64,000 bases of DNA from sequence record PP925834.1, one strand, 5' to 3'. The notes beneath the pieces were generated by a model that saw nothing but the letters and a program-made list of their open reading frames with translations, searched no databases and was not told the DNA's origin. Both the position numbers and the translations under genes were made by a program. Source of the stretch: Escherichia phage MiataMamis. This document shows positions 16,595 to 18,461 of this stretch, one piece after another. Positions within the stretch are counted from its first letter, which is position 1, and every line of letters starts with the position of its first letter.

Positions 16595-17218
16595 TTAGAA
16601 GTATTCATAGAGGTATCCATCGGGAGCTGGAATTTTTTCATGAATGTAGTAATCAACACATATCCCTGTTTCTCTTCGGCAAGAGTTGTGGGATACCCAT
16701 TCTTTAAGAACGTTGCCATTCATGTCCAGTCTCCTTACATTTTTACACCGTCTACCGCTGGTGCTTCTATGCAACAGAATATCCTCCGTCTGCTTGTCTT
16801 TATTTTCTCCCCAGGTAGTTAAACGGATATTATCAAAAGAGTACCCTTTGAAATCATCTATCCTATCACAAGAAGGCTTTTTCCTTTTGTCGTATCCGCT
16901 GGCTACCCACTGGTCATACAACTCTTTGTAACCGTTCAGGTATAGCCACTCCTTAAACTCTTTTTTGGTGTAAGTCGGAGGTGGGTGACCTCTCTTCTTA
17001 CTGTTGCACTTTTGAGTCTTGTACAACACGCGGATCACACCTTTTTCTGAAGAGTCGTGGGAAAATTGGTCAGCCTCCCTGCTGGCCTTCTTGCAACACT
17101 CTTTGCACTTATTAAGATGACCGTCAGACATCTTTGGGTGTTTGTAGAACTCGGAGAGGTTTTTCACCTCTCCGCACTTGATGCACCTCTTACAATGCGT
17201 GGATTTTACTTTTGCCAT
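16595..17218 (-). CDS. putative HNH-family homing-endonuclease-like protein (208 aa; ORF-track ORF 16595..17305 trimmed)
   Basis: N-terminal Cys cluster [10 protein letters not shown]...CKECC then [25 protein letters not shown], which resembles an HNH beta-beta-alpha motif; ATG at 17218. Confidence 0.5.
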
Positions 17219-18461
17219 ATTGCAAACCCACCGGAGCGAAAGGTATGTCATCACAGAACTCATACTGTGCCGGATTCTGATCCATTGGGTCATCTTCCTC
17301 ATCATTTACAGGAGGAGCGTCTACAGTGTTTTGCTGTGGAGCTGCTTCCTGTTTGGCAGCCTGAGGTTCTTGATGGTCAGTTGACCCAGCCCCGTTCTTG
17401 ATCCAATCGTACAACGGCTCAGCCAGATTAGTCAAGACATCTTTTGCTTCTGCAGTAATTGCCGCTGCAAAATCATCAACTTTCGTTTTCTTGTCAATAC
17501 GGCGACAAGCGTTCAACACCGCATTACCGACACTGGCACCTACTTCATCTTCAGTTCGGTTGGTGGCTTGAGCATACTCTTTCTTAAGCTCAATGGTGAC
17601 TACGTGCAGTGTTTTAGCCACGCCCAGTGGGTCGTCTACCTTAATCCCGCGATCCAGGATGATCTGCAACGCATTGATGCTATGCCCAGTTTCCACACCG
17701 ATAGGGTCGTAAGAGGATTTACGCTTGCCACCAGAGCCTTGAGTGCCGTTCTCTGCCTTAGGTGGATAGGCTTTGAAACCACTGATAATGTTTCCGGTGT
17801 CTTTGTCAACAATGGCTGCAACACGACCACCTACCACCAGATCTTTAAGCTGCTCATCAGTGACAACCATGGCACCTTCGCCAATCTTGTGGTCATTAAC
17901 AGTAACCACGTTACCAACAATCTGAGTCACATCACCATAGATGCGTAAAACGTCCTGATTGGCATTCTGCTGAGGTTTCTGCTTCTGACCTTGTGATTGT
18001 GCACCTTGTTGCTGTTTTTGCTGCTGAGTCGCTGCTGGAGCCTCTCCTGCACCCAGTTTGACCATCTTAGCCAGTGAGCCTTTGTAATAGGTCTTACCGT
18101 TATGCTCGTTTGCCTTCAAAGGAATATTTACGATCCATCCTGGCGTTACGGTTTCCCACTTGTCATCAATCTTAACAGAGACAGAGTCTTGATGACCAGG
18201 TTTAAGCAGCTTATCGCCCATGCTGATCCAGACTTCTTCACCGCCTTGAAGCAGGTTATCAGAGGAATCCAGTTCAGAAATCAGTAAAGAGATGGTGTGG
18301 CTGGATTCAATTTTCTTACCTTGCCACACGGTGGTTTTAATACCTGTTGTAGGATCAGCACCTTTGATAGGCTTGATGCTGACACGTTTAATCATGCCGT
18401 GAGCCAGTAAAACAGTTTCACGCGGATTCATCGGGTTAGCGAATTGTTGAATAACGCTCAT
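17190..18461 (-). CDS. putative ssDNA-binding-like protein (423 aa) with Gln-rich linker and acidic tail
   Basis: Gln/Gly-rich low-complexity linker; C-terminal region ...[22 protein letters not shown] resembles the bacterial SSB tip (PMDFDDDIPF) but is followed by 15 extra residues. Confidence 0.5.

Follow-up and report, generated by a model that had tools for sequence, protein, structure and literature searches.

A conserved tail and a putative PacI-like homing endonuclease inserted together at the SSB-type tip codons of a Vequintavirus replication gene

Escherichia phage MiataMamis (sequence record PP925834.1) is an rV5-like Vequintavirus, and the window analyzed here is a stretch of 64,000 nucleotides from this record. 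Two overlapping genes in it are the subject of this report: a gene for a 423-residue replication protein that resembles single-stranded DNA-binding proteins (SSBs) and, directly downstream, a gene for a putative free-standing homing endonuclease. The genes discussed are all encoded on the minus strand. The 3.4-kb stretch around the locus is 97–98% identical to phages I29, CM1, MaxBurger, and rV5, and in rV5 (NC_011041) the pair is annotated as gp209 (hypothetical) and gp208 (“endonuclease”) with an identical overlap. A preliminary description had reported a DDIPF motif followed by 15 further residues, an overlap with an HNH-like gene that starts at ATG 17218, and a cysteine cluster in the product of that gene, all of which are present as described. 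The endonuclease gene ends at 16595, and the two genes share 29 nt. The features of the locus are as follows.

17190..18461, minus strand: SSB-like replication gene, 423 aa (rV5 gp209 orthologue; phrog_4477)
17238..17252, minus strand: codons for DDIPF (residues 404–408), the SSB-type tip, which is internal here and C-terminal in endonuclease-free alleles; the PHROG profile ends at F408
17193..17237, minus strand: 15-codon extension (residues 409–423), a member of the AP[IV]GLQ[YF]...[IL][HY]x[LIM] tail module
16595..17218, minus strand: free-standing putative homing endonuclease gene, 207 aa (rV5 gp208 orthologue; phrog_1035; family alignment)
16598..17237, minus strand: inserted cassette of 640 nt (tail codons, stop, endonuclease gene), absent from 65 of 115 relatives
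17238..17267, minus strand: last 30 nt before the insertion point, with 27% differing positions against endonuclease-free alleles and 1–6% elsewhere in the flanks
16558..16579, minus strand: terminator-like hairpin GCCCTGCCCGAAAGGGTGGGGC with a T run, located 3′ of the endonuclease stop and, in endonuclease-free alleles, 3′ of the SSB-like stop

Junction-specific searches of GenBank phages, which cover 115 Vequintavirus records, distinguish three alleles at this position.

Allele A (65 records): 408-aa SSB-like protein ending in ...DDIPF-TAA, a 62-nt spacer with the terminator hairpin, then the next gene
Allele B (18 records): 408-aa SSB-like protein ending in ...DDSIPF-TGA, followed after 8 nt by the gene for a 192-aa endonuclease that differs in its N-terminus
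Allele C (31 records, including the window and rV5): 423-aa SSB-like protein with the overlapping 207-aa endonuclease

The nuclease is thus missing in 57% of genomes that are otherwise 95–99% identical, and none of the junction counts contains the tail alone without an endonuclease. The proposal of the preliminary description that a homing-endonuclease gene had been inserted downstream of an SSB-like gene and had displaced its original stop is borne out by these counts and by the comparison of orthologues, in which the endonuclease-free alleles stop right after DDIPF.

The boundaries of the cassette follow from a DNA alignment of the window, rV5, bov11CS3, ev146, and JeffSchatz. Its left end falls directly after the Phe codon, whereby the original stop is displaced, and its right end is the TAA stop of the endonuclease gene, beyond which the sequence continues as CATCTAGTTAAC...GCCCTGCCCGAAAGGGTGGGGCATTTTT, as it does after the SSB-like stop in allele A, and then through the common terminator. 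Because this terminator is common to both alleles, the cassette lies inside the transcription unit of the SSB-like gene and is promoterless; no promoter-like site of its own is seen in the 640 nt. A comparable indel separates Phapecoctavirus nieznany from the metagenomic contig L036, where a 511-nt unit consisting of the tail and a classical zinc-ribbon HNH gene replaces 30 nt between flanks that are 99.7% identical up to the Phe codon and 99.2% identical beyond it. The contig L041, whose protein is 83% identical to that of the window, keeps the tail together with a 17-nt remnant of the endonuclease 5′ end and has lost the nuclease open reading frame (ORF). As judged from this remnant, L041 shows how a tail-only allele can arise by decay. 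A further form of the locus is found in L042 and L043 (protein P0005), which end in ...QYDFCDDIPF*, have no endonuclease, and carry a Gln-rich linker that is 13 residues shorter; this allele has either lost the cassette precisely or represents allele C as it was before the insertion.

The 423-aa protein matches phrog_4477, a family of unknown function, with E = 9e-173, and the 393-position profile stops exactly at residue 408, the Phe of the tip. P407 and F408 are kept in 33 of 33 aligned homologues, and a tip-type ending occurs in just 1 of 1174 other ORFs taken as background from related phage loci. On account of these three observations, the tip is not a chance match. Relatives of the protein end in PPMDFDDDIPF, identical to the tip of E. 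coli SSB (...PPMDFDDDIPF), and the layout of an OB-type domain, a disordered acidic linker, and a tip is that of bacterial SSBs. The protein differs from these in having no match to the PF00436 SSB domain (Pfam returns no hit of any kind at E ≤ 0.1), in its extra barrel and helical domains, and in the 15 residues that follow the Phe. An AlphaFold model built on 33 homologues (mean predicted local distance difference test score, pLDDT, of 74) comprises a beta-rich domain (residues 1–138), a Gln-rich linker, a small barrel (171–232), a four-helix domain (253–355), and a disordered acidic tail (359–423). OB-fold domains are predicted in this model, in keeping with the SSB-like character first assigned to the protein, and orthologues are entered in some GenBank records as “putative single-stranded DNA-binding protein”, which is an annotation and not a test. 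A free C-terminal Phe is present in the 408-aa endonuclease-free alleles and absent in the window allele. The small middle barrel (window residues ~170–240; alignment columns ~230–300) is missing from the Stephanstirmvirinae homologues of 305–321 aa, which retain the N-terminal domain, the helical domain, and the tip.

The tail itself is not confined to the cassette. Relatives of the 423-aa protein that carry it without an endonuclease include SSE121, KB57, ESCO32, L021, L024, L025, and L041, and endonuclease-free members of the genera Seunavirus, Mydovirus, and Justusliebigvirus are among the tail carriers. SSE121 and KB57 end in ...DDDIPF-APIGL[QP]YGRNFIHCI*, followed by a convergent tail-fibre gene, and ESCO32 ends in ...APIGLQYGRNFLHCF*, followed by a terminator and a methylase gene. 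In 72 database homologues, the endings “...PF*” and “...PF + AP[IV]GLQY...” are interleaved across all levels of divergence. Further carriers comprise (i) canonical PF00436-type SSBs of Vibrio phages and of one P22-like phage, (ii) numerous fragmentary SSBs annotated in genomes of E. coli, Salmonella, Proteus, Providencia, and Klebsiella, which are probably SSBs of prophages or integrative and conjugative elements and were retrieved with a profile of the tails whose matches, mostly short partial SSB records, under-sample full-length carriers, and (iii) primase-helicases of Mydovirus KpS8 and Seunavirus GAP31 (APIGLQYA[KN]HAIY..). The enterobacterial fragments (P0193–P0238, from the genera just named and Tatumella) end in ...EPPMDFDDDIPF plus APIGLPYPRHAIYVI or APVTLPFPRHAIHAI. 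Orthologues of the primase-helicase in Mydovirus and Seunavirus have the tail with or without an endonuclease, and in GAP31 a zinc-ribbon HNH gene begins inside the primase-helicase tail. Tail length is constant at 14–17 residues in the endonuclease-free genera, the unrelated SSBs, and the primase-helicases.

Where both parts occur, the tail and the endonuclease gene are tightly interlocked. The endonuclease start codon of the window lies inside the tail codons (caa TAT Ggc), and in the window, nieznany, L017, L039, and GAP31 the endonuclease core (K-x-C-[FI]-K-C-G) starts directly after the tail stop, with the start ATG drawn from the Tyr-Gly or Tyr-Ala codons of the tail.

The pattern of variation within the tail points to selection at the protein level. 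Pairwise comparison of 12 diverse tails gives mean differences of 0.17, 0.11, and 0.57 at the first, second, and third codon positions of the APxGLQY core, and differing codon pairs are synonymous in 226 cases and non-synonymous in 83, in comparisons that are not phylogenetically independent. The other two reading frames show no conservation in the same 12 tails. Since variation is concentrated at third positions and the other frames are not conserved, the tail appears to be under purifying selection for its peptide sequence in the SSB frame; the direction of this effect is clear. Conservation through the overlap with the endonuclease N-terminus or through an RNA element was considered as well and is ruled out by the unconserved +1 and +2 frames and the free wobble positions. 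Disorder is predicted for the tail. The pockets known to receive SSB tips hold the ultimate Phe, and nearby basic residues bind acidic residues and/or the terminal carboxylate (PMC3632105). Because these pockets accommodate a terminal Phe, partner binding should, by analogy, change once the tail is added; whether the tail does alter the set of partners of the 423-aa protein is about an even call.

The endonuclease is a separate ORF with its own start codon, and endonuclease-free alleles show no missing exon. A group I intron or intein at the end of the gene is ruled out on these grounds, and tail-bearing endonuclease-free genes run straight into a terminator or a convergent gene. Three regions of the protein can be delimited.

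17096..17194, minus strand: N-terminal zinc ribbon (residues 9–41), with C12, C15, C38, and C41 invariant in 19 relatives
16802..16867, minus strand: PacI-like beta-beta-alpha-metal motif, with D118, R119, Y126, and N139 invariant and no catalytic His
16598..16750, minus strand: predicted C-terminal NUMOD/I-HmuI-like DNA-binding region (profile alignment to I-HmuI; PF22083)

Pfam gives no hit for the 207-aa nuclease itself, which matches phrog_1035 (“endonuclease VII”) with E = 7e-41. The four invariant residues of the central motif are embedded, in the 19 relatives, in KPSxDRxDDxKGYSxxNxxLxT...N. Searched against the sequences of the Protein Data Bank, the family profile finds residues 90–116 of R.PacI (3ldy; E = 0.0045) and, marginally, residues 73–171 of I-HmuI (1u3e; E = 0.047), and PF22083 (I-HmuI NUMOD-like) is matched by 4 of the 19 family members. 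The AlphaFold model (pLDDT 89) places strands at residues 115–119 and 131–135, followed by a helix at 136–149, and its top Foldseek match is PacI, with a probability of 0.97 and weak statistics otherwise (E = 9e-3, TM-score 0.31–0.44). The usual HNH catalytic His is absent from the family alignment; an invariant Arg (D118-R119) occupies its position, and Y126 is invariant. PacI is an HNH enzyme that also lacks this His and is thought to use a Tyr (PMC3384342). On the strength of alignment and model, the nuclease classes as a PacI-like HNH variant with a zinc ribbon and a DNA-binding domain of the homing-endonuclease type, which gives the initial label “HNH-like” a more precise form.

The nuclease is also a mosaic. 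Its residues 1–48 are 52–64% identical to the N-termini of the endonucleases of nieznany, GAP31, and ECOO78, and beyond residue 48 it is 87–89% identical to the allele-B enzyme. Relatives of the zinc-ribbon N-terminus are classical HNH endonucleases that lie behind SSB or primase-helicase genes in other phages.

The position of such endonucleases was surveyed in IMG/VR for the 80 zinc-ribbon HNH genes most closely related to the nieznany type (42–57% identity), 76 of which have a same-strand upstream ORF ending nearby. At 55 of these 76 loci, the upstream ORF ends in an acidic D-[DE]-x-[IVL]-P-F plus 0 or 1 residue, to be set against the background of 1 in 1174 ORFs from the same loci. The tip-ending upstream ORFs number 56 when one locus outside the 76 is included: 14 stop after the aromatic residue, 33 continue for one residue, and 9 have longer tails. 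They encode 49 distinct proteins, among them 17 PF00436 SSBs, and fall into at least eight PHROG families (several annotated as SSB, one gp2.5-like, and phrog_4477). For the PacI-like enzymes, about 9–10 of the 13 closest relatives (≥45% identity) lie behind a tip-ending ORF. Relatives of the 423-aa gene have at least four further types of endonuclease at this position, which is an endonuclease hot spot. The endonucleases found directly behind the SSB-like gene in other contigs include a 242-aa PacI-like variant (L181, 2702–3430) and genes in L034 (3415–3921), L020 (3685–4116), and L026 (3725–4138), the last three comprising an HNH_3/AP2-like type and two other zinc-ribbon types. The idea that each tip variant (DDSIPF, DFEDVPF, ...) has its own endonuclease type is unsupported, given L180, which has DDSIPF and no endonuclease, and given L015, L016, and L023, which have DFEDVPF without a tail.

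Other endonuclease insertions at the tip site add 0 or 1 residue. Cassettes of the one-residue kind (IMG/VR L102–L179, e.g., L109, L124, L130, L154, and L177) have the common junction CCT TTT / AAT TAA GTCC(C/G)TTTTAAT. Within this junction lie the recognition sequence of PacI, TTAATTAA, and a short direct repeat of CCTTTTAAT, which may hint at where cleavage or insertion takes place.

The polymorphism, the cassette boundaries, the fold class of the nuclease, the conservation of the tail peptide, and the placement behind tip-ending genes are established, and the locus is probably best explained as a mobile cassette composed of a homing endonuclease and a functional tail module. A promoterless unit of 640 nt is inserted directly after the tip Phe codon and upstream of the terminator of the SSB-like gene. 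Its first part, 45 nt in frame with the SSB-like gene, adds the 15-residue AP[IV]GLQY... tail and makes the Phe internal; its second part supplies the 207-aa nuclease with its zinc ribbon, PacI-like HNH motif, and I-HmuI/NUMOD-like DNA-binding domain. The enzyme is proposed to cut endonuclease-free alleles at or near the junction of tip codons and stop, after which double-strand-break repair would copy the cassette in (intronless homing, as for T4 SegG at gene 32), and the insertion itself would disrupt the target site. The tail is most readily seen as a native alternative C-terminus of many mobile-element SSBs that was captured from the 3′ end of a donor gene: an endonuclease would have settled behind one tail-bearing gene, and the unit of tail and endonuclease would then convert tail-less alleles, co-conversion carrying the tail along and swapping that of the recipient. 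To judge from position, the chances are roughly balanced that the DNA encoding the conserved tip is the homing site, and if it is, movement between non-homologous SSB and primase-helicase genes would follow from it. More tentatively, a large family of zinc-ribbon HNH enzymes might home on SSB-tip DNA (...DDIPF-stop) and jump across unrelated phages, with some of its cassettes swapping the interaction end of a replication protein.

Several observations weigh against this explanation or narrow it. The cleavage, homing, and co-conversion steps are inferred from sequence, and the target site is deduced from position alone. The nuclease lacks the HNH catalytic His, although active PacI does likewise, and its activity here is a prediction. 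The survey was drawn from neighbours of one SSB-linked endonuclease, so that its figure of 72% describes that subfamily and not all zinc-ribbon HNH enzymes, and the more distant PacI-like relatives (<45% identity) occur in other contexts. The mismatch density at the junction was measured by distance for the window against L003, L004, and L013; nieznany and L036 show no extra divergence beside their junction, and the 27% patch of the window may therefore reflect past events and not self-immunity. The window-type tip DFCDDIPF occurs in L042, which has no tail and no endonuclease. As L180 shows with its DDSIPF ending and its lack of an endonuclease, tip variant and endonuclease type are not strictly linked.

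The preliminary description took the 15 residues for a by-product of the displaced stop, that is, for meaningless read-through into endonuclease-associated DNA. Such an origin would agree with the exact start of the tail at the insertion point, with the stop after DDIPF in endonuclease-free alleles of the same genus, with the joint gain or loss of tail and endonuclease in two genera, and with the position of the endonuclease start codon within the tail codons. It is at odds with the sharing of the tail, at constant length, by endonuclease-free relatives and by unrelated canonical SSBs and primase-helicases, and with the concentration of variation at third codon positions of the SSB frame while the other frames are unconserved, a sign of purifying selection. 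Other cassettes produce an immediate stop or a single added residue, and a long extension is thus unnecessary for insertion. Read-through is accordingly very unlikely and, as far as sequence comparison goes, appears already largely refuted. The wide occurrence of the tail in distant endonuclease-free genera would fit an ancestral C-terminus, after whose native stop the endonuclease was inserted; the 408-aa alleles would then be secondary truncations, and the cassette would not include the tail. The start of the endonuclease core directly after the tail stop in the window, nieznany, L017, L039, and GAP31 would suit this order of events. It is made unlikely by the nieznany/L036 pair, where tail and endonuclease form one indel between nearly identical flanks, by the 65 of 115 Vequintavirus records that have neither, with the tail alone in none of the junction counts, and by L041, the sole close relative with the tail alone, which retains the endonuclease remnant. 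An ancestral tail and a mobile cassette can be reconciled if the donor lineage had the tail natively.

The nuclease might also be no selfish element but a functional partner of the SSB, e.g., a nuclease recruited for replication or recombination. HNH proteins beside terminase genes serve DNA packaging and offer an analogy, and the very consistent adjacency to SSB-type genes in diverse phages, the co-transcription with the SSB-like gene, and the overlap of the two genes could be read in this sense. A partner of this kind would hardly be dispensable in more than half of near-identical genomes, be replaced by several non-orthologous nuclease types at one site, decay to a remnant, or mask the functional tip of the neighbouring protein by its insertion, and the zinc ribbon/HNH/NUMOD layout is of the homing-endonuclease type. 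Such a partnership is even less probable than read-through, and a mobile cassette with a functional tail remains the preferred explanation.

T4 SegG is the closest precedent. This free-standing GIY-YIG endonuclease is encoded between genes 32 and 59, cuts the SSB gene (gene 32) of T2, and spreads by double-strand-break repair, i.e., intronless homing, with co-conversion of flanking markers (PMC2988022). The two systems share a free-standing endonuclease beside a phage SSB gene and a promoterless cassette that depends on transcription of the host gene. They differ in that SegG belongs to the GIY-YIG family and leaves the SSB coding sequence unaltered, whereas the enzyme of the window is a PacI-like HNH protein whose cassette begins at the last sense codon and lengthens the SSB-like protein by a conserved tail, its homing being a proposal. 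R.PacI (3ldy) is the best match in both profile and fold. Both proteins have a pair of CxxC zinc sites and the vDRxDxxxGYSxxNxRL...N motif, and neither has the usual catalytic His; in contrast to the window protein, PacI is a restriction enzyme that acts on TTAATTAA as a homodimer of 142-aa subunits. An additional helical segment and an I-HmuI-like C-terminal DNA-binding domain are present in the window protein, which also behaves as a mobile element. Lactococcal Skunavirus phages are also known to encode PacI-like HNH endonucleases (PMC12724721). I-HmuI (1u3e, from Bacillus phage SPO1) likewise combines HNH with a C-terminal NUMOD-like helix-turn-helix DNA-binding domain, but it is intron-encoded and keeps the catalytic His, and the match to it is marginal as given above. 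A further comparison is offered by the ShiLan insertion element in a phage methylase gene (PMC11855218), which differs from the cassette of the window in being located within its host gene and in including the nuclease there. The window cassette contributes no more than a 15-residue leader to the protein of its host gene and encodes the nuclease in an overlapping ORF of its own.

A second replication gene of the window also has an SSB-type tip.

24489..26567, minus strand: primase/helicase gene (DnaB_C) ending in ...GFEDDETPF*, without a tail

Its tip codons lie at 24492..24509, and the gene adjoins the family A polymerase gene PolA (21653..24430). In phage T7, the SSB gp2.5 and the helicase-primase gp4 have acidic Phe-terminated tails. 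The window resembles T7 in that the SSB-like protein and the primase/helicase both have acidic Phe tips (17238..17252 and 24492..24509) and a family A polymerase gene is nearby; there is no sequence homology, and polymerase binding can be proposed by analogy only.

Free-standing phage homing endonucleases are well known, the window gene is already annotated as an endonuclease, and the locus alone is ordinary. The part worth following up is the wider pattern of endonucleases at SSB-tip codons and of a conserved tail that hides the tip. SSB-tip codons seem to be a general landing site for HNH endonucleases, behind at least eight unrelated SSB-like families and behind primase-helicases, which, if true, would be a clear case of a homing site set by a short common peptide motif and not by a gene. 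Many mobile-element SSBs carry the conserved tail after DDIPF, a feature that seems undescribed and that should, by analogy with known pockets, block the terminal-Phe binding mode; here it moves with an endonuclease, and a selfish element would thus, if this holds, rewire the SSB interactome of its host. A literature search found nothing on the extended tail or on an SSB-tip homing site, which, its coverage being incomplete, is weak evidence of novelty. Natural near-identical pairs with and without the tail exist, with rV5 or the BASEL phage MaxBurger on one side and the endonuclease-free BASEL phage JeffSchatz on the other, and make the role of a free SSB C-terminus in phage replication directly testable.

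Two minor observations concern the surroundings of the locus. About 16 GenBank records labelled “Campylobacter phage” (MG065644, MG065690, and ~14 more, with C. jejuni as the label) are 97.9–100% identical to the rV5-like region, and their Campylobacter host label looks doubtful in light of this identity. The gene at 14880–15338 on the minus strand of the window is the orthologue of rV5 gp204, carries a Tk.4-like phosphatase/Macro-domain label in related records, and is unrelated to the cassette.

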